This document shows, piece by piece, positions 1,422 through 43,573 of a DNA stretch of 54,350 nucleotides. A program made the position numbers and the translations under genes. Within the stretch, counting starts at the first letter, position 1, and each line of letters opens with the position of its first letter. Source of the stretch: a virus (taxonomy: Duplodnaviria; Heunggongvirae; Uroviricota; Caudoviricetes); the IMG/VR virus record IMGVR_UViG_2909257012_000004; one strand, given 5' to 3'. The notes beneath the pieces were generated by a model. The model had not been told where the DNA came from. It did not search any database and saw only the letters and a list, made by a program, of their open reading frames with translations.

Positions 1422-3893
1422 TTAAAAATCAGCCTGATTCGGGATCAGTTTTTGCCAGATAACTGAAACGTATTTTGCCTGGTAACGGGCGTCATCAAGT
1501 GCATTATGGCGCTCACCTTCGAATGGAATAGCCGTTCTGGCATCGAAGTCTATGGCTTTCCCCAGCTCAACGATTGTGCGTACATCGCGATCGTTGTAGT
1601 AACGCCATGGGCAGGGGATCCCCTGCCGTTCGTATGAACGGCGCAAAATCGTGTTTTCGAAGTTGGCTCCATTTCCCCAGACCTGAACAAAAAATTCACC
1701 GGAGTTTTCGTCGATAAATTCCCGCAATTGTAACAGTGCATCATCTAACGGGATTTCATCGGTCATAATGGCAGACTGCGCTTCACGTGATTGCTTCAGC
1801 CACCTTTTAATGACGTCACGATCAATGACTCCGCCAGCAGTTTCCAGATCGATAGTCTTACTAAATTCCGGTCCCATATCTCCGGTTTGCGGATCGAAAA
1901 ATATTGCATCTATTGAGATAATCGGGGCATCAGGATTTTTTCCCATGGTTTCAAGGTCAATCATCAGATGGTGCCACAACCTGCTGGTGGATGTGCTTTT
2001 ACGATGACTGTTCACCTTAATTAAGGGATTTGCTGTCTCGCCTATTTCATTATTGTCATTGGCATGTTGATCGCCTTCGGTGCACTCCTTGTTCGGGAGT
2101 CCGGCATTTTCTATTTCCTCTGGATCTTTTTCCCGGGCTTCATCCTGGCTTTCTTCGTTGAATGTCTCCTGGTAGGTTGCGTCACCCATCACTGCGCCAC
2201 AATCAGGGCAGTTACCACCACCAGTCTGATTGCATGCGGTACAAACTTTTTCCTCTTCCTGTTGCACGACTGGTTCAGGTTGTTTCGTTTCTGGCTCGTT
2301 TTGTAACGCATTTTGGCTGTTTTGTTCCGCTTTTTGGTCGTACTGTTCCGTTTCTGACTGGTTCTGGTGCACAGAATCGCGGGTTTCAATCCCCTTCACC
2401 CATTTCGGATCATTCGGGTCGCTAATCCCTTCAACAAATTCACCACGTGATGCAGCGAGCAACTTATTAGCGTCAGGCTGGCTGATACTGGCTGCCTGCA
2501 TAATTTTGTTTACTTCGTCAGCGGTAACTTTTACCAGGTCTGGTTGTGCGGTCGTGTCAGATGCATCAGTATTTTGTTGTGAACCTGTGTATGTGCCGTT
2601 TTTGCGGGCAAAATATTCTTCTTTCGTGATTTCAGTTGCCCCGGCAGCCAGCGCCTTATCCAGACCAGAAAGTTTGTTTGCGCGACCGTATTTTTCGCCA
2701 TCCTTGTCGGTGAAGAGGAAGTAGAACGGCCCCTCACGCTCTACAGATGGTTCGACTTCCACTTTGCATTCGGTTTTTTCGTTGTCCGGAATTGCCGTTT
2801 CCACTGCATCAGTTTCTGGTACTGGCGACGAGAGAGTATCAGTTGCGCTCTGATTTCTTCCTTCATCTTCAAACACGCCCTTTGTAGTCAGGTATTCAGT
2901 AATGTATTTGTTCAGTGCCACAGGGTCTTTGTGAATGTCGATCGGACGTTCACGGACAAGGCCAAAAATAGTCTGGCGGTCGTAGCGAAGGGCATCAGGC
3001 TGTTTGCGCATTGATGCCGAGATACGCTTCCAGTCTTCGCGGTCGTTGTCGATAACTTCATTTTTTGCCCAGCGATGGATGCTGCCGTCAATGTTTCCGG
3101 CATCCACATCACCAGGCCAGAGAGCGTAGGCCAGTTCGTCATCCAGTGTTTTCCATGTCTGCTTGTATTCGCGATGAATGGCAGCAATGACCGGGCTGAT
3201 TTTTCCTGTTGAATTTTCAGTGTACTGTTGATTGGCTCTGGCGCGGGCGAGATCAACAACAGACGTGTATTTTCCGGTTTCCTTGCGTTCACCTTCACGA
3301 CGTTTTTTCCAGATGCGCATCTCTGCCTGAATTTCGGGCCATTTGGCACCAGGCTTACATTTATGCTTAACCCACCCGATGGCATGCAGCTTAAGCTCCG
3401 GATACATGGCGTTAACTTCTGGCATTTTCATCAACGCTTCAACGATATGTCCGTCGAATGTTGCCATGTCTTCCTGCAACAATTCCTGTGCGCTAATAAC
3501 CATATCAACGGTGATGTTTTCACATGTGTCGAACTTAACCATGACAGCGTTCTGTACTTCAGGGGCCAGCTTGTCAAAAGTGACGTTCATCGGATCGGAT
3601 TCAGTCTCAACCGGGACAAAGGAAGCAGACTCCTCATCCCAGCGGTTTTCCTGCATATATTCAGCATCCCAGGAATCGAGGGCAGGGCGGGGTATACCGG
3701 GTTTATCCTCGCAGACAAGAAATTTATAAGCGCAGTCCTGAGCAGCCGGATAATGTTCCAGGAATTGCCAGTGAAATTTTGCGCGGGCGCGACGTTCATC
3801 ACCGGCTTCAATGGCAGTGGCTACAGCGACGGCACCTTCTTCCTTTATTGCCTGTTCGTCCGGAATGGCGGCGCAAATAAAGACTTTACTCAT
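1422..3893 (-). CDS. Large prophage exonuclease (full-length YdfE/RecE-like) with C-terminal DEDDh 3'-5' exonuclease domain
   Basis: 823-aa ORF. C-terminus shows DEDDh motifs (LMIDLETMG, then HNALDDARY). A central stretch (KLLAASRGEFVEGISDPNDPKWVKGI) matches my recollection of RecE. Sits in the exo position of the leftward operon. Confidence 0.7.
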   Translation of the reverse strand: MSKVFICAAIPDEQAIKEEGAVAVATAIEAGDERRARAKFHWQFLEHYPAAQDCAYKFLVCEDKPGIPRPALDSWDAEYMQENRWDEESASFVPVETESDPMNVTFDKLAPEVQNAVMVKFDTCENITVDMVISAQELLQEDMATFDGHIVEALMKMPEVNAMYPELKLHAIGWVKHKCKPGAKWPEIQAEMRIWKKRREGERKETGKYTSVVDLARARANQQYTENSTGKISPVIAAIHREYKQTWKTLDDELAYALWPGDVDAGNIDGSIHRWAKNEVIDNDREDWKRISASMRKQPDALRYDRQTIFGLVRERPIDIHKDPVALNKYITEYLTTKGVFEDEGRNQSATDTLSSPVPETDAVETAIPDNEKTECKVEVEPSVEREGPFYFLFTDKDGEKYGRANKLSGLDKALAAGATEITKEEYFARKNGTYTGSQQNTDASDTTAQPDLVKVTADEVNKIMQAASISQPDANKLLAASRGEFVEGISDPNDPKWVKGIETRDSVHQNQSETEQYDQKAEQNSQNALQNEPETKQPEPVVQQEEEKVCTACNQTGGGNCPDCGAVMGDATYQETFNEESQDEAREKDPEEIENAGLPNKECTEGDQHANDNNEIGETANPLIKVNSHRKSTSTSRLWHHLMIDLETMGKNPDAPIISIDAIFFDPQTGDMGPEFSKTIDLETAGGVIDRDVIKRWLKQSREAQSAIMTDEIPLDDALLQLREFIDENSGEFFVQVWGNGANFENTILRRSYERQGIPCPWRYYNDRDVRTIVELGKAIDFDARTAIPFEGERHNALDDARYQAKYVSVIWQKLIPNQADF

Positions 3894-4536: not shown

Positions 4537-4589
4537 GGGCGGCAGAGCAGTCACGGAGTAAAACTGATACCGCCAAACGTCACCAGAAA
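4537..4589 (-). ncRNA. dicF: DicF small RNA (53 nt)
   Basis: Minus-strand sequence TTTCTGGTGACGTTTGGCGGTATCAGTTTTACTCCGTGACTGCTCTGCCGCCC matches the recalled DicF sequence exactly, including its 3' hairpin followed by a T-run. Confidence 0.9.
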
Positions 4590-18233: not shown

Positions 18234-20102
18234 ATGGTGGAAAGAACCATGGCATTTAAACACTATGATGTTGTCAGGGCGGCGTCGCCGTCAGATCTTG
18301 CGGAAAAGCTGACACATAAACTGAAAGAGGGCTGGCAGCCGTTTGGTAGTCCGGTGGCCATAACCCCTTATACCCTGATGCAGGCGATTGCAGCAGAAGG
18401 TGATGTGGTCGTCAGTGGTGCAACTGAGCCGGAGTGGTACTACGTCATCGTACTGGCCGGGCAATCCAATGCCATGGCTTACGGTGAAGGGCTTCCGCTT
18501 CCGGATTCATACGATGCGCCCCATCCGCGCATTAAGCAACTGGCCCGTCGTAACACAGTGACTCCCGGTGGTGAAGTATGCGTATTTAACGACATCATTC
18601 CTGCTGACCATTGTCTGCATGATGTTCAGGATATGAGTACGATTAACCATCCCCGGGCTGACCTGAGCAAAGGGCAGTACGGCTGTGTCGGACAGGGCTT
18701 ACATATTGCCAAAAAACTGCTTCCGTATATCCCTAATAATGCGGGGATCCTGCTGGTACCATGCTGTCGTGGTGGTTCGGCATTCACCCAGGGCACGGAG
18801 GGGACATTCAGCGAGTCCACGGGGGCCAGTCAGGATTCGGCTCGCTGGGGAGTGGGTAAGCCGTTATATCAGGATCTGCTTTTCCGCACGAAGGCAGCAT
18901 TGCAGAAAAACCCGAAAAACGTTTTGCTGGCGATATGCTGGATGCAGGGGGAATTCGATATGACGAATGCCAGTTACGCCCAGCAGCCAGCAGCATTTCT
19001 TGCAATGGTACAGCAGTTCCGTGCTGACCTTGCCGGGCTGGCGGCGCAGTGTCACGGTGGAAGTCCGGCATCAGTCCCCTGGATTTGTGGCGACACGACA
19101 TACGCGTGGAAACAAGAACACGGTACGCAATATGAAGTGGTATATGGTGCATATAAAGGTAAAGAATCCCAGCAGATTTATTTTGTTCCCTTTATGACCG
19201 ATGGTAGCGGAGTTAATACACCGACAAACAACCCGTCAGAAGATCCTGATATTGCCGGGTCTGGTTATTACGGTTCGGCATCCCGAACGAACAAAAACTG
19301 GGTATCATCAAATCGCCCGACGCATTTCAGCTCATGGGCGCGTCGTGGCATTATTCCCGATCGTATGGCAACTGCTATTCTGAACGTAGCCGGTCGCACC
19401 TTAGCCTTCATTAGTGGTAAGGCACCGGAAATCAAACCCTCGCCCGGCGGCGACACGCCATCGGGGCCGTCTGAAGATGCATCCGTACGCACAATCTCCC
19501 TGTTGCCGACAGCCGGAGATGCTGCTGCGCAGGGCTGGAGCATTAAGAATGGCGGAATTCAGTTGTCAGATGGTGTATTTAAGATCACCAAGCAGAGCAA
19601 TAAAGCCTGGTCCCTGACGCGCCCGGTGGATGACGCAGTCTCCCTGCTGACACGGGGTGGCAGACTGAGCTGTAAGTTTCGACTGTCAGGCGCACTGACC
19701 AACAATCAGTTCGGTCTGGGAATTTATCTGTATACCGATGTAGCGTTACCTGACGTCGTGGCGATGACCGGGACTGGTAACCCGTTCCTGATGTCGTTCT
19801 TCACCCAGACCACAGACGGCAAACTGAATCTGATGCATCACAAGAAAGCAGGAAACACAAAGTTGGGCGAGTTCGGGAATTACAGTAACGACTGGCAGAC
19901 GCTGGAGCTGGTGTTCACCGCCGGCAGTGCCACGGTTACTCCGAAACTGAATGGAGTGGCTGGCCCGGCATTCCAGGTCATAAAAGACAGTCTGACACTG
20001 GGGCTGAATGCGCTGACGCTGACGGATATTACCAAAAATGCAACGTATGGCGTTGAGATAGAAAGTCTGGTGCTGGAGATAAATGCACCGGCATCATCAT
20101 AA
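18234..20102 (+). CDS. nanS: Phage sialate O-acetylesterase NanS-p-like (SASA/DUF303 domain)
   Basis: 622-aa ORF with esterase motif GQSNAMAY near the N-terminus, in the position NanS-p occupies downstream of stx in Stx phages. Possible alternative start at 18249. Confidence 0.75.
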   Translation: MVERTMAFKHYDVVRAASPSDLAEKLTHKLKEGWQPFGSPVAITPYTLMQAIAAEGDVVVSGATEPEWYYVIVLAGQSNAMAYGEGLPLPDSYDAPHPRIKQLARRNTVTPGGEVCVFNDIIPADHCLHDVQDMSTINHPRADLSKGQYGCVGQGLHIAKKLLPYIPNNAGILLVPCCRGGSAFTQGTEGTFSESTGASQDSARWGVGKPLYQDLLFRTKAALQKNPKNVLLAICWMQGEFDMTNASYAQQPAAFLAMVQQFRADLAGLAAQCHGGSPASVPWICGDTTYAWKQEHGTQYEVVYGAYKGKESQQIYFVPFMTDGSGVNTPTNNPSEDPDIAGSGYYGSASRTNKNWVSSNRPTHFSSWARRGIIPDRMATAILNVAGRTLAFISGKAPEIKPSPGGDTPSGPSEDASVRTISLLPTAGDAAAQGWSIKNGGIQLSDGVFKITKQSNKAWSLTRPVDDAVSLLTRGGRLSCKFRLSGALTNNQFGLGIYLYTDVALPDVVAMTGTGNPFLMSFFTQTTDGKLNLMHHKKAGNTKLGEFGNYSNDWQTLELVFTAGSATVTPKLNGVAGPAFQVIKDSLTLGLNALTLTDITKNATYGVEIESLVLEINAPASS

Positions 20103-20187
20103 AAAGTGAGCCAGTCAAATGGAAGGTATCGTTAAACTCACCGGTAGTGTCAGTGGGTCGTCTGAGATGCCTGCATGAGTTATCAGA

Positions 20188-20217
20188 GCCATCAGTACTT
20201 AACTGGTGGCTTTTTTT
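20188..20217 (+). terminator. Terminator-like hairpin between nanS and the holin
   Basis: GCCATCAGT-ACTTA-ACTGGTGGC stem-loop followed by TTTTTTT. Confidence 0.5.
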
Positions 20218-20252
20218 ATTGTTGTCAGCTTCCGGATAACGGGAGACGGGGT

Positions 20253-20468
20253 ATGTACCAGATGGAAAAAATCACAACAGGTGTGTCATACACCACGTCA
20301 GCGGTGGGAACGGGCTACTGGTTCCTGCAGTTGCTGGACAGGGTTTCCCCGTCTCAGTGGGCGGCAATAGGCGTGCTGGGGAGTCTGCTGTTTGGGCTGC
20401 TGACATATCTGACTAACCTGTATTTCAAAATCAGAGAGGACCGTCGTAAGGCGGCACGGGGAGAGTAA
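20253..20468 (+). CDS. S21-type pinholin (71 aa, dual-start motif MYQMEK)
   Basis: Near-identity to recalled phage-21 S over GYWFLQLLD...[14 protein letters not shown]...[22 protein letters not shown]. Confidence 0.85.
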
Positions 20469-20472
20469 TTCA

Positions 20473-20817
20473 ATGACTCAAAACTATGAACTGATTGTGA
20501 AAGGGATCCGCAATTTTGAGAATAAAGTTACGGTAACTTTAGCGTTACGGGACAAAAAACGCTTTGACGGTGAAATTTTTGACCTGGACATCTCGCTGGA
20601 CCGTGTTGAAGGTGCCGCGCTGGAGTTTTATGAGGCAGCAGCCAGAAGGAGCATCAGACAGGTCTTCCTGGATGTTGCTGCCGGGTTATGTGAAGGGGAT
20701 GAGCAGTCGCCGGAAAAGCGCCCCGTAATTTTAGAGGCGCAGGATGTGTTGATAACCTACAGAGGAAAACTACCGGGAATAATTACGGGTTCTCTGAAGA
20801 GTCCGCCGAAATGGTAA
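20473..20817 (+). CDS. Hypothetical protein inserted between holin and endolysin
   Basis: 114-aa ORF starting 5 nt after the holin stop, with a GGAGAG Shine-Dalgarno. Confidence 0.5.
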   Translation: MTQNYELIVKGIRNFENKVTVTLALRDKKRFDGEIFDLDISLDRVEGAALEFYEAAARRSIRQVFLDVAAGLCEGDEQSPEKRPVILEAQDVLITYRGKLPGIITGSLKSPPKW

Positions 20818-21055
20818 TTTTACCAGCATATTTTTCATCCAGTAATACAGCAAGCCGCCTGAAAGAGTCTTGTTGTTCCTGAGACCATTTGGGATTGCAT
20901 GATTCAAACTGGATTGATGCCAGCGTTGATTGCATCTGTTCCCTTGGAATTGAGAATGCCAGATATGAGAAGGCGACGGTAAGGGTATTCACGTCTTCCC
21001 GAAGCCTGGAAATGCTGTCGAGCAACTCCTGTAGAGAAATGGTGTTATTGTCCAT
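20783..21055 (-). CDS. Hypothetical protein on the opposite strand inside the lysis cassette
   Basis: 90-aa ORF with a GAGGA Shine-Dalgarno; convergent with and overlapping the previous ORF by 35 bp. Confidence 0.4.
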   Translation of the reverse strand: MDNNTISLQELLDSISRLREDVNTLTVAFSYLAFSIPREQMQSTLASIQFESCNPKWSQEQQDSFRRLAVLLDEKYAGKITISADSSENP

Positions 21056-21160
21056 AAATAATCCTCATGATTGTATTGACCTGTTAGCAGCCTGAGGCAA
21101 CAGGCTGGAACTGATAAACATATCCAGGGCTCAGAAACCGATAAATCCTGATAAATATCC

Positions 21161-21694
21161 ATGAACGCAAAAATCAGATACGGCCTGTCGGCTGCCGTTC
21201 TGGCGCTGATTGCCGCTGGTGCGCCTGCGCCTGACATTCTCGACCAGTTTCTGGATGAAAAGGAAGGTAACCACACCACGGCATACCGTGATGGCGCGGG
21301 TATCTGGACCATCTGCCGCGGTGCCATCCTGGTGGATGGCAAACCTGTCGTTCCGGGCATGAAGTTGTCGAAGGAAAAATGCGACCGGGTTAACGCCATT
21401 GAGCGTGATAAGGCGCTGGCATGGGTGGAGAAAAACATCAAAGTGCCATTGACCGAACCCCAGAAAGCGGGGATCGCGTCATTCTGTCCGTACAACATTG
21501 GTCCCGGTAAGTGTTTCCCGTCGACGTTTTACAGACGAATTAATGCAGGTGATCGCAGGGGAGCATGCGAAGCGATTCGCTGGTGGATTAAGGACGGTGG
21601 CAGAGACTGCCGTATTCGCTCAAATAACTGTTACGGTCAGGTATTCCGTCGTGACCAGGAGAGCGCGCTGGCGTGCTGGGGAATCGACAGATAA
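21161..21694 (+). CDS. SAR endolysin (GH24 lysozyme, R21-like)
   Basis: N-terminal signal-anchor-release segment (LSAAVLALIAAGAPA) and a lysozyme E...D...T region (EGNHTTAYRDGAGIWTICRG). Confidence 0.85.
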   Translation: MNAKIRYGLSAAVLALIAAGAPAPDILDQFLDEKEGNHTTAYRDGAGIWTICRGAILVDGKPVVPGMKLSKEKCDRVNAIERDKALAWVEKNIKVPLTEPQKAGIASFCPYNIGPGKCFPSTFYRRINAGDRRGACEAIRWWIKDGGRDCRIRSNNCYGQVFRRDQESALACWGIDR

Positions 21695-21783
21695 GCAGAA
21701 TATTTTGCTGAAAAATGAGGTTGGCCAACGCGGGCGGATAACACGAAGTCCTGTGAACTGGCAAAACCTAAGTGAATAAAAGT

Positions 21784-21826
21784 AAAAACCCCGTTTGTTG
21801 GCAGCAAGCGGGGTTTTGTTTTTATG
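21784..21826 (+). terminator. Terminator-like hairpin downstream of the endolysin
   Basis: AAACCCCG...CGGGGTTT stem followed by TGTTTTTAT. Confidence 0.5.
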
Positions 21827-22336
21827 GCAGTAAGCTATGGGAGGCTGCCTTGATTGATTTTAGCAAACTGATTAGGGAGTTGCGACTCATGATTAGTCAA
21901 TTACCAAACTGGAAATTTTTGCTGGTCTGGAGCATCCCTTTTTTATGGGTAGTATCCCAGTTAATTGTGGCAATTAAGGGGTAGCTATGTCAGACAAACT
22001 CATAACGCCGGCAAAGGTCCTGTGTGTGATTGTCGGTATTTCATTTTCACTAATGCTGGTTGCTCTTTTTCTGTCCCTCGCCTGGGTGATGTTGTCTTCG
22101 TCGGGGCTGCTGGGGTGACAGTGACTGATGACATCAGCAGAGCGCTGGCTTTTGCTATTAAGTGGGTGGCTGTTGGTATTGCTGTGTCTCCGATGCTGTA
22201 TGGGCTGGCAAAACTGGTCATTGCGCTGAAATCGTGAACTTTAAAAAGATGAGTGCTGAACTTATTCGGGCAATGGCATTTGCCATTCGTATTGTGGCCA
22301 TTGCTGTTCTGGTCTGGGCAATCCGTTGGTGGTGAT

Positions 22337-22831
22337 ATGAACCGTGTTCTGTGTGTGGTGATTATTGTCATGCTGGTAGCCTGTGGTGTGCTTAGTCTGG
22401 GGCTGAATCATTACCGCGATAACGCCATCACCTACAAAGCGCAGCGCGATAAAAAAGTCAGTGAGCTGAAACTGGCGAATGCCACTATTACTGACATGCA
22501 GCAGCGCCAGCGAGATGTCGCTGCGCTTGATGCCAGATACACGAAGGAATTAGCCGATGCGAGAGCTGAAAATGAAACTCTGCGCGCTGATGTTGCCGCT
22601 GGTCGTAAGCGCCTGCGGGTCAACGCCACCTGCCCCGGTACCGTGCGTGAAGCCACCGGCACCTCCAGCGTGGATAATGCAACCGGCCCCCGACTGGCAG
22701 ACACCGCTGAACGGGATTATTTCATCCTCAGAGAACGGTTGATGACAATGCAGAAGCAGCTGGAAGGGGCGCAGGAATATATCCGCACTCAGTGCACTAA
22801 GCTGGCTTTTTATTATCCGGAGGATACATGA
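22337..22831 (+). CDS. Rz inner-membrane spanin
   Basis: N-terminal transmembrane segment then coiled-coil; Rz1 embedded in the +1 frame. Confidence 0.8.
22572..22742 (+). CDS. Rz1 outer-membrane lipoprotein spanin, embedded in Rz
   Basis: [15 protein letters not shown] lipobox followed by a proline-rich sequence, entirely inside Rz. Confidence 0.75.
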
Positions 22832-23043
22832 AGAAATTACGGGTAACCGTAGAACCTTTTCAGGGAACAATTCCGTTCCGTATTTTGCAGCGTGGTCGTG
22901 TTCTTGTTGAAGGTTCGTTCAGTGGTAAATGTACGCAATTACACTCCCGGACCTTTCAGGTGAATGCCACGAATGAAGAGCTAACCGTGGAGTGTACGAT
23001 GAATGCCGCTAAATGCCGCATGGTATTACAGCCAGTGTGTTGA
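22828..23043 (+). CDS. Small hypothetical protein (71 aa, 4 Cys) translationally coupled to Rz
   Basis: ATGA overlap with the Rz stop and a GGAGGA Shine-Dalgarno. Confidence 0.45.
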
Positions 23044-23241
23044 GCGACCTTATTATCCATGCGCGGTATTGTCGCCGTATTCCTGCATTAACAGAGACCG
23101 CAGCCCGACAGGGAGACTCCTCTGCGCGAGTGTGCGGGGATAATCAAAAACGATACACACCGGGGTTTACCGCGTTAACGGAGCGCGGCGTTGTCCCCTC
23201 ATAGTCGCCTGTCCGGTGCGATGGTGGAAGAAACCGAACGT

Positions 23242-23442
23242 TCATTTCTCGTTATTTGTCATGCTGGCCGGGCGCAGATGCGTTGCATCTGTTGCCAGCC
23301 TTCTCCTGCAGGCTTCAATAACCCACGCTGAAAAGTTACCGGACCCTTTATGCTCAAGGGCGATGTTGATCTGTTCAATTATGTGATTGGGGAAACGGAT
23401 ATTGCGGGTTGTGGTTCTGCGGGTCCGGTTTTTCGATGACAT
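23242..23442 (-). CDS. Ribbon-helix-helix-like small DNA-binding protein (66 aa)
   Basis: Arc/CopG-like pattern RNIRFPNHIIEQINIALEHKG; AAGGAA Shine-Dalgarno; antisense to the late operon. Confidence 0.45.
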   Translation of the reverse strand: MSSKNRTRRTTTRNIRFPNHIIEQINIALEHKGSGNFSAWVIEACRRRLATDATHLRPASMTNNEK

Positions 23443-38435: not shown

Positions 38436-39179
38436 ATGACACAGACTGAATCAGCGATTCTGGCGCATGCCCGGCGGTGTGCGCCTGCGGAGTCGTGCGG
38501 CTTCGTGATAAGCACGTCGGAGGGGGAGTGGTATATCCCTTGTGTGAATATTTCTGCAGAGCCGGAGGCGTATTTTCGTATCGCACCGGAAGACTGGCTG
38601 CGGGCAGAGATGCAGGGGGAGATTGTGGCACTGGTCCACAGTCATCCCGGTGGGCTGCCCTGGCTGAGCGAGGCTGACCGGCGGCTGCAGATAAAAAGCG
38701 CACTGCCCTGGTGGCTGGTCTGCCGGGGTGACATTCACAAATTCCGCTGTGTGCCACATCTGACAGGACGGCGCTTTGAGCACGGGGTGACGGACTGTTA
38801 CACGCTGTTCCGGGATGCTTATCATCTGGCGGGGACTGAAATGCCGGATTTTCATCGCGAGGATGACTGGTGGCGCAACGGTCAGAACCTTTACCTGGAC
38901 AATATGGCGGTCACCGGCTTTTACCGGGTGCCCCTGTCCTCTGCACAGGCGGGCGATATTCTGCTGTGCTGCTTTGGTGCTTCGGTACCGAACCATGCCG
39001 CCATTTACTGCGGCAACGGTGAGCTGCTTCACCATCTGCCTGAACAACTGAGTAAACGGGAGAGGTATTCCGAAAAATGGCAACGACGAACGCATTCTGT
39101 CTGGCGTCACCGCCACTGGCACGCATCTGCCTTCACGGGGATTTACAACGATTTGGCCGCCGCCTCAGCCTGTATGTGA
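38436..39179 (+). CDS. Tail assembly protein (lambda K-like, JAB/MPN plus NlpC/P60 motifs)
   Basis: HSHPGG metalloprotease-like motif and a downstream Cys/His region; start placed at MTQTES (38436) rather than the longer ORF-track frame. Confidence 0.8.
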   Translation: MTQTESAILAHARRCAPAESCGFVISTSEGEWYIPCVNISAEPEAYFRIAPEDWLRAEMQGEIVALVHSHPGGLPWLSEADRRLQIKSALPWWLVCRGDIHKFRCVPHLTGRRFEHGVTDCYTLFRDAYHLAGTEMPDFHREDDWWRNGQNLYLDNMAVTGFYRVPLSSAQAGDILLCCFGASVPNHAAIYCGNGELLHHLPEQLSKRERYSEKWQRRTHSVWRHRHWHASAFTGIYNDLAAASACM

Positions 39180-39757
39180 ACACGGCAGCGGAAGCCATCC
39201 GGGCGCTGTCGTTACAGGTGCCGGGCTTTCGCCGTCAGATGAACGAAGGCTGGTACCAGATACGTATTGCCGGTTATGACACGGCACCGGAGGCGGTGTA
39301 CGCCCGTCTTCACGAACAGCTGGGTGAGGGAACGGTCATCCATATTGTGCCGCGACTGGCCGGGGCCGGAAAGGGTGGACTGCAGATTGTGCTGGGGGCG
39401 GCAGCCATCGTGGGCTCTTTCTTCACTGCCGGGGCATCAATGGCGTTATGGGGTTCAGCCCTGGCAGCCGGTGGTTTTTCTGCCACCACGATGCTGTTTT
39501 CACTTGGAGCCAGCATGATTCTGGGCGGTGTGGCCCAGATGCTGGCCCCGAAGGCAAAAACACCGGATTACCGCGCAACGGATAACGGCAGACAGAACAC
39601 GTACTTTTCCTCGCTGGATAACATGATTGCCCAGGGGAACCCGATGCCGGTGCCTTACGGGGAAATGCTGGTTGGCTCCCGCCGTATATCCCAGGACATC
39701 AGCACCCGTGATGAAGGCGGGGGCGGAACGGTCGTGGTTATCGGGCGACAGGGATAA
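39077..39757 (+). CDS. Tail assembly protein (lambda I-like)
   Basis: Close match to recalled lambda I (ARICL.GDLQRFGRR..., GASMILGGVAQMLAPKA, NTYFSSLDNM). Confidence 0.8.
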   Translation: MATTNAFCLASPPLARICLHGDLQRFGRRLSLYVNTAAEAIRALSLQVPGFRRQMNEGWYQIRIAGYDTAPEAVYARLHEQLGEGTVIHIVPRLAGAGKGGLQIVLGAAAIVGSFFTAGASMALWGSALAAGGFSATTMLFSLGASMILGGVAQMLAPKAKTPDYRATDNGRQNTYFSSLDNMIAQGNPMPVPYGEMLVGSRRISQDISTRDEGGGGTVVVIGRQG

Positions 39758-39965
39758 AACATAAAAAAATCCCGCAGTGATCGCGGAGCTGCGGGGACAG
39801 ACAAATGAAGATCAATGTTAAGGAGTTGTTTTTGTTACTCGGGCAAAAAAACACTAACGCAGCGAAATTATAAGCGCCACAGTCAGTGTGTGAAAATGTG
39901 AAGATATTCAGAATTTTTATGCCATTACCGGTTTTAACCAACAGGATTATCGGTGGGCATGAAAG

Positions 39966-39996
39966 AAAACCCCGGTATCTGCTGATACCGGGGTTT
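39966..39996. other. Strong hairpin in the unusually long I-J intergenic region
   Basis: AAAACCCCGGTATC-TGC-TGATACCGGGGTTT, with T-runs on both sides. Confidence 0.4.
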
Positions 39997-40099
39997 CTCT
40001 TTAGCATGGCAGAAATGTGTTTCATGCTTTTCGGGCGAAGGATATCCGACTTCTGTACGGAATGGCAAGTGGCGGTTAATTTATTCAGGGGAAGGCTGT

Positions 40100-43000
40100 A
40101 TGGGAAAAGGTGGCGGTAAGGCACACACGCCTCGTGAGGCGAAGGATAATCTCAAATCCACGCAGATGATGAGCGTGATTGATGCGATTGGTGAGGGACC
40201 GATAGAAGGTCCGGTGAAGGGACTGCAGAGTATTCTGGTGAACAAAACCCCACTGACGGACACGGACGGCAATCCCGTGATACACGGTGTGACGGCGGTC
40301 TGGCGCGCCGGGGAGCAGGAGCAGACACCACCGGAAGGCTTTGAGTCCTCCGGAGCTGAAACCGGACTGGGCGTGGAAGTGACGAAGGCAAAACCGGTGA
40401 CGCGCACCATTACGTCCGCGAACATTGACCGCCTGCGGGTTACCTTCGGGGTGCAGTCACTGGTGGAGACCACCTCAAAGGGTGACCGTAACCCGGCATC
40501 CGTCCGCCTGCTGATTCAGTTACAGCGTAACGGTAACTGGGTGACAGAAAAGGACGTCACCATTAACGGCAAGACCACCTCACAGTTCCTGGCCTCGGTG
40601 ATTCTGGATAATCTGCCTCCCCGGCCCTTTAACATCCGGATGGTCAGGGAGACGGCGGACAGCACCACGGACCAGCTGCAGAATAAGACGCTGTGGTCGT
40701 CATACACCGAAATCATCGATGTGAAACAGTGCTACCCGAACACGGCCATTGTGGGGCTGCAGGTGGATGCGGAGCAGTTCGGCGGCCAGCAGATGACGGT
40801 GAACTACCATATCCGCGGTCGCATCATCCAGGTGCCGTCAAACTATGACCCGGAAAAACGCACGTATAGTGGTATCTGGGACGGCAGTCTGAAACCGGCA
40901 TACAGCAACAACCCGGCCTGGTGTCTGTGGGACATGCTGACTCACCCGCGCTACGGCATGGGAAAACGTCTGGGGGCGGCGGATGTGGACAAGTGGGCGC
41001 TGTATGCCATCGGGCAGTACTGCGACCAGACGGTCCCGGATGGTTTCGGGGGGACCGAGCCGCGGATGACCTTTAATGCGTACCTGGCACAACAGCGTAA
41101 GGCGTGGGACGTTCTCAGTGATTTCTGCTCTGCGATGCGCTGTATGCCGGTATGGAACGGTCAGACGCTGACGTTCGTTCAGGACCGCCCGTCGGATGTG
41201 GTGTGGCCGTACACCAACAGCGATGTGGTGGTGGATGATAACGGCGTGGGATTCCGCTACAGCTTCAGTGCCCTGAAGGACCGGCACACGGCGGTGGAGG
41301 TGAATTACACCGACCCGCAGAACGGCTGGCAGACCTCCACGGAACTGGTGGAAGACCCGGAAGCCATACTGCGCTACGGACGCAACCTGCTGAAGATGGA
41401 CGCGTTCGGCTGTACCAGCCGCGGTCAGGCCCACCGTGCCGGACTGTGGGTGATAAAGACCGAACTGCTGGAAACGCAGACGGTGGATTTCACGCTCGGG
41501 TCTCAGGGGCTGCGGCACACACCCGGTGACATTATTGAAATCTGTGATAATGACTATGCCGGGACCCTGACCGGCGGACGTGTCCTGTCCATTGATGCTG
41601 CCACCCGCACCCTGACGCTGGACCGTGAGGTTACCCTGCCGGAGACAGGTACATCGGCGGTGAACCTGATTAACGGCAGCGGTAAGCCGGTGAGTGTGGA
41701 CATCACCGCACACCCCGCGCCGGACCGGATACAGGTCAGTACCCTGCCTGATGGTGTGGAGACATACGGGGTGTGGGGACTCTCCCTGCCGTCACTGCGC
41801 CGTCGCCTGTTCCGCTGTGTCTCCATCCGGGAAAACACGGACGGCACCTTTGCCATCACGGCGGTGCAGCACGTACCGGAAAAAGAAGCCATCGTGGATA
41901 ACGGTGCCCGCTTTGAGCCGCAGTCAGGTTCCCTGAACAGCGTCATCCCACCGGCAGTGCAGCACCTGACGGTGGAGGTGAGCGCAGCTGACGGCCAGTA
42001 TCTGGCGCAGGCGAAATGGGACACGCCGCGGGTGGTGAAGGGTGTGCGCTTCAGTCTGCGCCTGACCAGTGGTAAGGGAACGGATGCCAGACTGGTGACC
42101 ACCGCCATCACCGCAGACACGGAGCACCGTTTCAGCGGCCTGCCGCTCGGGGAATACACCCTGACGGTGCGGGCGATAAACAGCTATGGCCAGCAGGGTG
42201 AACCTGCCACCACCACCTTCCGGATTGCCGCACCGGCAGCACCGTCGCGGATTGAGCTGACGCCGGGCTATTTTCAGATAACCGCAACGCCACATCTTGC
42301 CGTTTATGACCCGACGGTACAGTTTGAGTTCTGGTTCTCGGAAAAGCGGATTGCGGATATCAGGCAGGTTGAAACCGCAGCCCGCTATCTTGGCTCGGCG
42401 CTGTACTGGATAGCTGCCAGTATCAATATCAAACCGGGCCATGATTATTATTTTTATATCCGCAGTGTGAATACTGTTGGCAAATCGGCATTCGTGGAGG
42501 CTGTCGGTCGGGCGAGCGATGATGCGGAAGGTTACCTGGATTTTTTCAAAGGAGAAATCGGGAAAACACATCTGGCCCAGGAGCTGTGGACGCAGATTGA
42601 TAACGGTCAGCTTGCGCCGGACCTGGCTGAAATCAGGACGTCCATTACGAATGTCAGCAATGAAATCACGCAGACCGTCAATAAAAAACTGGAAAATCAG
42701 AGTGCGGCAATCCAGCAGATACAGAAAGTTCAGGTTGATACAAATAATAACCTGAACAGCATGTGGGCCGTGAAACTGCAGCAGATGCAGGACGGACGCC
42801 TTTATATTGCGGGTATCGGTGCCGGTATTGAGAATACGCCAGCAGGAATGCAGAGTCAGGTGCTGCTGGCGGCAGACAGGATTGCGATGATTAATCCTGC
42901 GAATGGCAACACAAAGCCGATGTTTGTTGGTCAGGGCGATCAGATATTTATGAATGAAGTGTTCCTGAAATATCTGACGGCTCCCACCATTACCAGCGGC

Positions 43001-43573
43001 GGTAATCCTCCGGCATTTTCCCTGACACCGGACGGGCGGCTGACGGCGAAAAATGCCGATATCAGCGGTAACGTGAATGCGAACTCCGGGACGCTCAACA
43101 ACGTCACGATTAACGAGAACTGTCGGGTTCTGGGAAAATTGTCCGCGAACCAGATTGAAGGCGATCTCGTTAAAACAGTGGGCAAAGCTTTCCCCCGGGA
43201 CTCCCGTGCACCGGAGCGGTGGCCATCAGGAACCATTACCGTCAGGGTTTATGACGATCAGCCGTTTGACCGGCAGATTGTTATTCCGGCGGTGGCATTC
43301 AGCGGCGCTAAACATGAGAAAGAGCATACTGATATTTACTCCTCATGCCGTCTGATAGTGCGGAAAAACGGTGCTGAAATTTATAACCGTACCGCGCTGG
43401 ATAATACGCTGATTTACAGTGGTGTTATTGATATGCCTGCCGGTCACGGTCACATGACACTGGAGTTTTCGGTGTCAGCATGGCTGGTAAATAACTGGTA
43501 TCCCACAGCAAGTATCAGCGATTTGCTGGTTGTGGTGATGAAGAAAGCCACTGCAGGCATCACGATTAGCTGA
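40100..43573 (+). CDS. Central tail fibre / host specificity protein (lambda J-like)
   Basis: 1157-aa ORF following the I-like gene. Confidence 0.9.

Follow-up and report, generated by a model that had tools for sequence, protein, structure and literature searches.

The model we propose concerns four very small open reading frames (ORFs), P1 to P4, which lie between the endolysin gene R and the i-spanin gene Rz in the lysis cassette of a virus sequence, the IMG/VR record IMGVR_UViG_2909257012_000004, whose 54,350 nucleotides are referred to here as the window. The window is an Escherichia coli lambdoid prophage, and its lysis cassette is of the phage-21 type (pinholin, signal-arrest-release (SAR) endolysin and Rz/Rz1), with two further ORFs, ydfR and orf90, in the gap between the holin gene S and R. 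We tentatively favour a reading in which P1-P4 would be late-expressed inner-membrane accessory proteins that modulate the timing or the efficiency of lysis. The arrangement itself is the norm for the cassettes of Shiga toxin (Stx) phages and of the phage-21 type, and the sequences are ordinary, common and already catalogued.

Four chained micro-ORFs between R and Rz

The ORFs named in an earlier reading of this DNA, made from the letters alone (the sequence-only reading), are all present where it had placed them (Table 1), and its description of a phage-21-type cassette with extra ORFs between S, R and Rz is borne out by the Pfam, PHROG and PGAP identities of the genes. It had described three small hydrophobic ORFs between R and Rz, behind a terminator-like hairpin; the hydrophobic character, the hairpin (21785-21817, 15 pairs followed by a T tract) and the three ORFs are real, but the count is not, a fourth ORF at 22115-22237 having been missed. 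The first of the three had been given as 21889-21984, 31 residues from an ATG which is probably internal; its frame stands, but the start is most probably the TTG at 21850, yielding 44 residues, because a GGGAGG Shine-Dalgarno (SD) sequence sits 5 nt 5' of this TTG and the N-terminal extension is kept in the homologues, which retain a segment (I/F)DFSKLIRE(L/I)R and have GTG or ATG starts and AGGAG-type SD sequences. Annotation pipelines are inconsistent on such micro-ORFs, the start sites and even the presence of which differ between records of identical DNA: for the same sequence, PGAP and phage submitters give 70 or 31 residues for P1, and 51, 40 or 38 for P3.

P3 is truncated at its N-terminus relative to the common 48/60-residue form, the ancestral ATG and the first ten codons being gone, a loss that arose through recombination. 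P4 may start at GTG 22234 rather than at ATG 22249; its C-terminus, RWW, ends 1 nt before the Rz ATG, and the RWW-stop codons give a GGTGGTGA stretch. P3 and P4 are paralogous, the comparison of their full-length forms (from loci L005 and L009, respectively) giving z=9.5 with 0/1000 shuffles reaching it; searched from P3, their family C has homologues in 118 clusters from E. coli, E. marmotae and Salmonella. Those of P2 form 103 clusters, all the named ones being from E. coli, and family B was found only in E. coli/Shigella-type records. In each of P1-P4 there is a single hydrophobic stretch of about 19-25 residues, sufficient to cross the membrane. P1 and P2 are separated by 2 nt, P2/P3 and P3/P4 overlap in GTGA, and 1 nt separates P4 from Rz, which suggests that the four ORFs would form one uninterrupted translational chain into Rz.

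The substitution patterns indicate that P1-P4, ydfR and orf90 evolve as protein-coding genes, ydfR and orf90 under purifying selection. The ratio of non-synonymous to synonymous polymorphism (pN/pS) is 0.24-0.33 in frame versus 0.87-2.1 off frame for P1, 0.32 versus 0.76-1.06 for P4, and 0.56 versus ~1.0 for P2, the frame of which is intact in 9 diverged loci. For P3 it is 0 in frame versus at least 0.88 off frame, with 5-6 synonymous and no non-synonymous changes in the comparison with loci L005/L007 (P~1e-3). The values for orf90 are 0.28 in frame and 1.3-1.6 off frame, those for ydfR 0.26-0.51 in frame. Among near-identical copies of the P1-P4 module, seven of the eleven substitutions are synonymous and four non-synonymous (P=0.008), with one frameshift. 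Two competing frames were rejected: a minus-strand ORF of 123 residues at 22000-22371 is spurious (7 non-synonymous versus 2 synonymous variants), and a plus-strand ORF at 22128-22229 is off frame to P3, in which non-synonymous changes are absent. We also discarded the idea that P2 is a duplicated N-terminal transmembrane domain (TMD) of Rz, for which the protein comparison gave z=3.0 (9/1000 shuffles, among 45 comparisons) and the nucleotide alignment was not significant.

The sequence-only reading had named, as what would overturn its idea of extra ORFs, their being conserved and already characterised components of this cassette family. The first half of this proved true: the extra ORFs are conserved and belong to catalogued families (DUF1327; PHROGs 6632, 4906, 1115/3246/4493, 2411 and 406, E from 4e-7 to 1e-68). 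The second half did not, the PHROGs being all annotated 'unknown function' and none of the families having a characterised lysis role. P1-P4 gave no match to Pfam, NCBIfam or PADLOC models, and PADLOC gave none for any of the seven ORFs tested.

Table 1. Positions and assignments of the lysis-region features in the window
Feature	Positions	Strand	Evidence
P1, family A, 44 aa from TTG, basic amphipathic N-terminus and one TMD	21850-21984	+	phrog_6632 E=1e-12
P2, family B, 43 aa, N-in single TMD	21987-22118	+	phrog_4906 E=4.5e-21
P3, family C, 40 aa from GTG (38 aa from GTG 22121)	22115-22237	+	phrog_1115 E=6e-25
P4, family C paralogue, 33 aa from GTG (28 aa from ATG 22249)	22234-22335	+	phrog_4493 E=4e-7
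GC-rich hairpin and U tract, conserved 5' element of the micro-ORF cassette	21785-21825	+	terminator scan; stem 21785-21817, 15 pairs
Hypervariable spacer after the R stop codon	21710-21768		~20 variable sites and indels in 59 nt, 22 alleles
YdfR family/DUF1327 protein, 114 aa, soluble	20473-20817	+	PF07041 E=7e-43; phrog_406; PGAP 'YdfR family protein'
orf90, convergent soluble protein, 90 aa	20783-21055	-	phrog_2411 E=1e-58, unknown function; PGAP WP_000369850 'hypothetical protein'
S21-type class II holin (pinholin), 71 aa	20253-20468	+	PF04971 E=9e-33, 112.5 bits; phrog_9876/20 'holin'; PGAP 'class II holin family protein'
SAR endolysin R, 177 aa	21161-21694	+	PF00959 E=9e-24, 84.6 bits
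Rz i-spanin, 164 aa	22337-22831	+	PF03245 E=4e-51, 172.8 bits; phrog_13
Rz1 o-spanin, embedded in the +1 frame, lipobox VVSAC	22557-22742	+	PGAP 'Rz1 family lipoprotein' at the same position in the identical locus L003

Variable slots and a conserved hairpin

The interrupted cassette, which the sequence-only reading had taken for an unusual arrangement, is widespread. The Stx1 phage H-19B has the same layout, left unannotated, VT2-Sakai-type Stx phages share it, and the insert between R and Rz (21695-22336) is at least 80% present in 586 and present in part in 2,067 of 5,426 complete E. coli genomes. Exact or near-exact copies of each ORF occur on up to about 1000 contigs or more, ~1000 being the ceiling of the count, and relatives of P2 are found in 380 IMG/VR loci. 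In phage H-19B (AF034975) a YdfR-like ORF at 511-909 and a 45-residue family-A ORF at 1602-1739 are both unannotated, as is a 48-residue family-B ORF at 2338-2484, after the antirepressor gene ant, in the VT2-Sakai locus.

The contents of the two gaps vary from phage to phage. Between S and R there may be nothing (phage 21), ydfR, ydfR and orf90, an unrelated 90-residue minus-strand gene or longer DUF1327 fusions. Between R and Rz the simplest variants hold one gene, either a single 45-residue family-A gene (H-19B and many E. coli), a single family-C gene or P2 alone; others hold family C and P2, or ant and P2 (O157 Stx phages including VT2-Sakai), and the fullest carry P1-P4 as in the window or preceded by an ANT-domain gene. 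The P1-P4 module is freely combined with different fillings of the S-R gap. Both gaps are, on these comparisons, variable slots into which interchangeable accessory genes are shuffled by recombination.

The module bears the signature of a recent spread by recombination, because its left border is the hypervariable 59-nt spacer that follows the R stop codon and the 570 nt behind this spacer, comprising the hairpin and the ORFs, are nearly invariant. The spacer would be either a recombination junction of the mosaic type or an unconstrained 3' untranslated region. Prophage anti-small RNAs (anti-sRNAs) combine a variable 5' part with a conserved 3' hairpin (PMC4104026), a pattern which the spacer and the hairpin resemble; no Rfam model matched at E<=1 within 20000-23300, and hence no known small RNA (sRNA) was found in the 3' region of R or in the leader. 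A copy of the hairpin-P1-P2 part lies after the spanin genes at 2850-3132 of locus L016, a myovirus-type prophage with a lambda-S-type holin and a non-SAR endolysin; in this single example P1 is frameshifted and P2 starts with ATA, and the module may be decaying outside its pinholin/SAR context.

The hairpin has the features of an intrinsic terminator, namely a GC-rich stem, a U tract and a conserved structure, and the A run on its 5' side together with the T tract on its 3' side gives it the shape of a bidirectional terminator. In an alignment of 18 loci from 12 genera its 12 pairs are 96.8% paired and seven of them show compensatory double changes; none of 500 shuffles reached the observed values, and controls slid along the alignment were 33-60% paired. 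The hairpin, with its U tract and 5' A run, stands 30-40 nt 5' of the start codon in 18/18 aligned loci. The U tract can pair with the SD sequence in most leader variants, and an SD-sequestering hairpin recurs in the predicted folds, the minimum-free-energy z-scores of which are weak (mean -0.88); sequestration of the SD by the leader is thus hinted at by these folds.

The covariance model R1 of the cassette scores 68.5 bits at the R-Rz hairpin of the window. A weaker match (27 bits, E~1e-4) occurs at 39962-40025, in the 340-nt gap between gpI (39077-39757) and gpJ (40100-43573), and no hydrophobic ORF lies 3' of this second hairpin. In two Salmonella prophages (L121 and L122) the I-J slot is filled by the hairpin and a family-C micro-ORF; that of the window may have been emptied or never filled.

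Beyond E. coli, a scan of one genome per species found family A in Citrobacter, Providencia, Brenneria, Pantoea, Edwardsiella, Trabulsiella, Symbiopectobacterium, Sodalis, Yersinia, Serratia, Vibrio and Azoarcus, always co-oriented with the neighbouring genes. It lies 3' of three unrelated endolysin types, GH24 (as in the window), GH19 and GH108, and 5' of Rz in Citrobacter braakii; it is also found after a baseplate spike gene, between the genes of the tail assembly chaperone (TAC) and the tape measure protein (TMP), between those of a T7 gp14-like protein and an SLT-domain internal virion protein, and after LPD38 and tail-fibre genes. Family-C genes, too, have this hairpin and leader in front of them, in E. 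coli, in the lysis cassettes of Salmonella and in a Salmonella I-J tail slot. Families B and C lie between the endolysin gene and Rz in E. coli, and family C does likewise in Salmonella, beside a different holin family. The shared hairpin leader and the multi-genus spread of family A are absent from the PHROG catalogue.

Proposed lysis modulation and its alternatives

In the reading we favour, P1-P4 would probably come solely from the Q-antiterminated late transcript, at the time when holin, endolysin and spanin are made, because an intrinsic terminator stands in front of them and a consensus-only scan of the R-Rz gap, in the window and in ant-containing variants, detected no sigma-70-like promoter on the coding strand. 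Their translation, as the chaining of starts and stops suggests, would probably be coupled in series and end in Rz. The products would insert in the inner membrane, the site of action of the pinholin TMDs, the R SAR domain and the Rz TMD, and would serve there as non-essential modulators, antiholin-like or accessory-holin-like, after the manner of LysA of phage P2 or LydD of phage P1.

LysA of phage P2 is an accessory membrane protein of the lysis operon. The LydD pinholin of phage P1 is another (PMC9025707), and the releasin gp25 of phage Mu (DUF2730) consists of an N-terminal TMD and an acidic cytoplasmic domain of ~70 residues (PMC9239132). All three are small inner-membrane proteins encoded beside (SAR) endolysin and spanin genes, are non-essential or conditional, and tune lysis. 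They have no sequence or family relation to P1-P4, which are smaller (28-60 residues with one TMD) than LydD and LysA with their 2-4 TMDs; the Mu releasin is a looser precedent, P1-P4 being devoid of a soluble domain and of any match to DUF2730 or to Pfam. In the literature searched, no function is described for the micro-proteins, no characterised role for the small ORFs or for the extra genes of Stx-phage lysis cassettes, no chaining into Rz and no hairpin-led cassette crossing genera.

Several observations weigh against this reading. P1-P4 resemble no holin, antiholin or releasin family in the Pfam and PHROG searches and have no lysis-category match in Pfam, NCBIfam or PHROG, which places them outside the described holin/antiholin families. 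The loss of the P3 start and the disruption of P1 in some loci imply that not every copy need work, and the promoter scans, confined to consensus sites, would miss weak or non-sigma-70 promoters. Above all, tail operons too harbour divergent members of families A and C, between TAC and TMP, between gpV and the next gene, between I and J, and between T7 gp14 and the SLT protein; our confidence in lysis modulation stays low because a purely lytic role does not predict them.

A broader view, possible but doubtful, takes the R-Rz insert as one example of a mobile, hairpin-led kind of micro-protein cassette, which would be a class not yet described. A member of this class would consist of a bidirectional-terminator-shaped hairpin, a short leader with a U tract able to pair with the SD sequence, and a single-pass membrane protein of 37-60 residues (families A and C) with a basic amphipathic N-terminus. 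It would move among the late operons of unrelated phage types (lambdoid, P2-like, Mu-like and T7-like) of Enterobacterales, Vibrio and Azoarcus, and insert beside envelope-crossing or envelope-cutting proteins such as endolysins, the tape measure protein, internal virion proteins and the baseplate spike. Through its hairpin and leader it would be expressed only in the late state, when transcription is antiterminated or high, and the micro-proteins would act on an inner-membrane step common to lysis and genome entry.

It is rather unlikely that the micro-proteins are moron-type lysogenic-conversion genes, providing superinfection exclusion at the inner membrane by blocking genome entry, the slots being merely permissive. 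The model for such a function is gene 15 of HK97, a moron that encodes a small inner-membrane protein by which superinfecting phages are excluded (PMC3594210), and a distant family-A member occupies the very TAC-TMP slot of this moron. Like HK97 gene 15 and other morons, P1-P4 would be small inner-membrane proteins of late operons that have spread horizontally; families A and C sit in several late-operon slots of many phage types, always as small self-contained units, and the spread of the module by recombination is independent of the neighbouring genes. However, the classical moron (Juhala/Hendrix) has its own promoter in front and a terminator behind, whereas P1-P4 have the opposite layout, with the terminator 5' and no promoter-like site detected 5' of the genes on the coding strand. 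No match to YebO/gp15 (no Pfam match at E<=10 besides noise) or to PADLOC defence models was obtained, and the tight chaining of starts and stops into Rz suggests co-expression with a lysis gene.

An improbable alternative is a cis-acting device, in which the hairpin, the leader and the short translated frames would set the output of Rz/Rz1 and of the downstream late genes, the peptide sequence being secondary. The conservation of the hairpin, with compensatory changes and a constant spacing to the first start codon, the possible pairing of the U tract with the SD sequence in most leader variants, the junctions or overlaps of 1-4 nt all the way into Rz, and the GGTGGTGA stretch supplied by the RWW-stop codons just 5' of the Rz ATG would all fit such a device. 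It does not explain why the amino acids are conserved beyond the needs of coupling, P3 having no non-synonymous change and family A keeping its motif across at least 12 genera, nor why the RWW end is retained where the following gene is not Rz; the weak folding scores of the leader also speak against it.

The sequence-only reading had offered decayed remnants and small membrane toxins as further possibilities. Remnants are very improbable, being largely excluded by the coding-type conservation: that the small ORFs are non-functional scars of recombination, open only because short and recent, would agree with the loss of the ancestral P3 start, with a stop or frameshift in P1 of loci L006, L016 and L083, with ATA in place of the P2 ATG in some loci and with the near invariance of the module, but all four ORFs and their diverged homologues show an in-frame excess of synonymous changes, family A retains its start codon and SD sequence and is conserved as far from Escherichia as Vibrio and Azoarcus, and family C keeps its length in Salmonella. 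The least probable is that P1 (family A) acts as a type I toxin held in check by an antisense RNA running from near the 3' end of the ORF to the bidirectional hairpin, since the features that recall hok/sok, ibs/sib and ldr/rdl (a short hydrophobic peptide close to a structured RNA, A and T runs that could terminate both strands, and minus-strand promoter-like sites at or near the 3' end of the ORF in the window and in L097/L099, L100 and L101) are outweighed by a systematic scan in which 5 of 15 diverse loci had an antisense site versus 2.5 expected (P=0.11) at positions that are not conserved, by the lack of room for a toxin promoter between hairpin and SD sequence, by the absence of any Rfam match in the region and by the chaining of the ORF to further ORFs and Rz. 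The site in the window, at 21964-21993 on the minus strand, reads CTGACA-18-CACAAT with a TG and lies at the P1/P2 junction, pointing through P1 to the hairpin.

Whichever reading prevails, lysis timing sets the burst size of a phage and, in Stx phages, the release of toxin. Descriptions of the phage-21/Stx cassette usually stop at S-R-Rz/Rz1; in most natural versions there are additional genes under selection, which are concrete and cheap deletion targets for lysis timing in the prophages of enterohaemorrhagic, extraintestinal pathogenic or K-12 E. coli. The multi-genus combination of hairpin and micro-ORF is in addition a test case for the regulation and the spread of very small phage membrane proteins.

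The S-R gap, the core lysis genes and their neighbours

The ydfR gene lies directly 3' of the class II holin gene and encodes a full-length DUF1327 protein, residues 1-111 covering profile positions 1-91/93 with 145.2 bits (gathering score 25). YdfR of the K-12 Qin prophage binds the N-terminal, catalytic half of RNase E and co-purifies with RNA (PMC13232886). It belongs to the same family, with 103 residues against 114 here, and no lysis role has been shown for any member of DUF1327. Because of the binding of the K-12 protein to RNase E and RNA, we infer by analogy that the YdfR of the window is more likely a cytoplasmic RNA-turnover factor, made late in phage development, than an envelope factor.

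The convergent orf90 overlaps the 3' end of ydfR by 35 nt, and its homologues (62 clusters) are confined to Escherichia, Shigella and Citrobacter. Its AlphaFold2 model is a three-helix bundle (pLDDT 68), for which neither a PDB sequence match nor a Foldseek match with E<0.4 in PDB or BFVD was obtained. In two other loci an unrelated 90-residue gene, also of 273 nt (WP_000138558), occupies the same slot on the minus strand (L006, 535-807; L009, 536-808), and the slot seems to accept antisense-oriented genes of about 273 nt.

The region 20100-22900 shares 100% identity with Escherichia phage vB_EcoS-783R2 and about 90% with many Stx-converting phages. Its holin has the features of the phage 21 pinholin: the Pfam match, two TMDs and a dual-start motif (Met1 and Met4). 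The three-residue extension of this dual start (20253-20264) is MYQ, without a basic residue. In phage 21 the antiholin form, S21-71, requires Lys2, and in the present allele the intrinsic antiholin mechanism may accordingly be weakened, which would leave room for external modulators. The endolysin, which has a lysozyme domain (PF00959), begins with a weakly hydrophobic Gly/Ala-rich segment, residues 9-27 (the GLSAAVLALIAAGAPAP region), in which the best 19-residue hydropathy window scores 1.74 from residue 9; we assign R to the SAR endolysins because of this segment and of the E35-D44-T50 spacing read from its sequence. The spanins are of the two-component kind, a PF03245 i-spanin that has its TMD at the N-terminus, with an embedded +1-frame lipoprotein carrying a lipobox. 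A 71-residue ORF at 22828-23043 (phrog_2571, unknown function; hypothetical in PGAP) overlaps the Rz stop codon in ATGA and, judged by this junction, is a further chained accessory gene just outside the R-Rz insert.

On its 5' side the cassette is preceded by an SASA/NanS-p-type esterase gene (18234-20102), and the spacer between the esterase and holin genes (20103-20252) ends in a strong intrinsic terminator (20185-20213). The prophage sRNAs PasA and PasC lie in an esterase-sRNA-holin-lysozyme arrangement (2026 preprint, bioRxiv 10.64898/2026.05.13.724894). The spacer is probably a PasA/C-type sRNA gene, because exactly this arrangement is found here; no Rfam model matched at 20103-20252. Further upstream of the esterase gene, the sRNA STnc100, which the same preprint links to PasD (bioRxiv 10.64898/2026.05.13.724894), is found at 16661-16850 with 132 bits. 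Elsewhere the prophage carries a DicF sRNA (4537-4588, minus strand), a sok RNA of the hok/sok type (11016-11191, plus strand), that is, a genuine type I toxin-antitoxin locus, and two tRNA genes on the plus strand, at 15712-15784 and 15888-15961.

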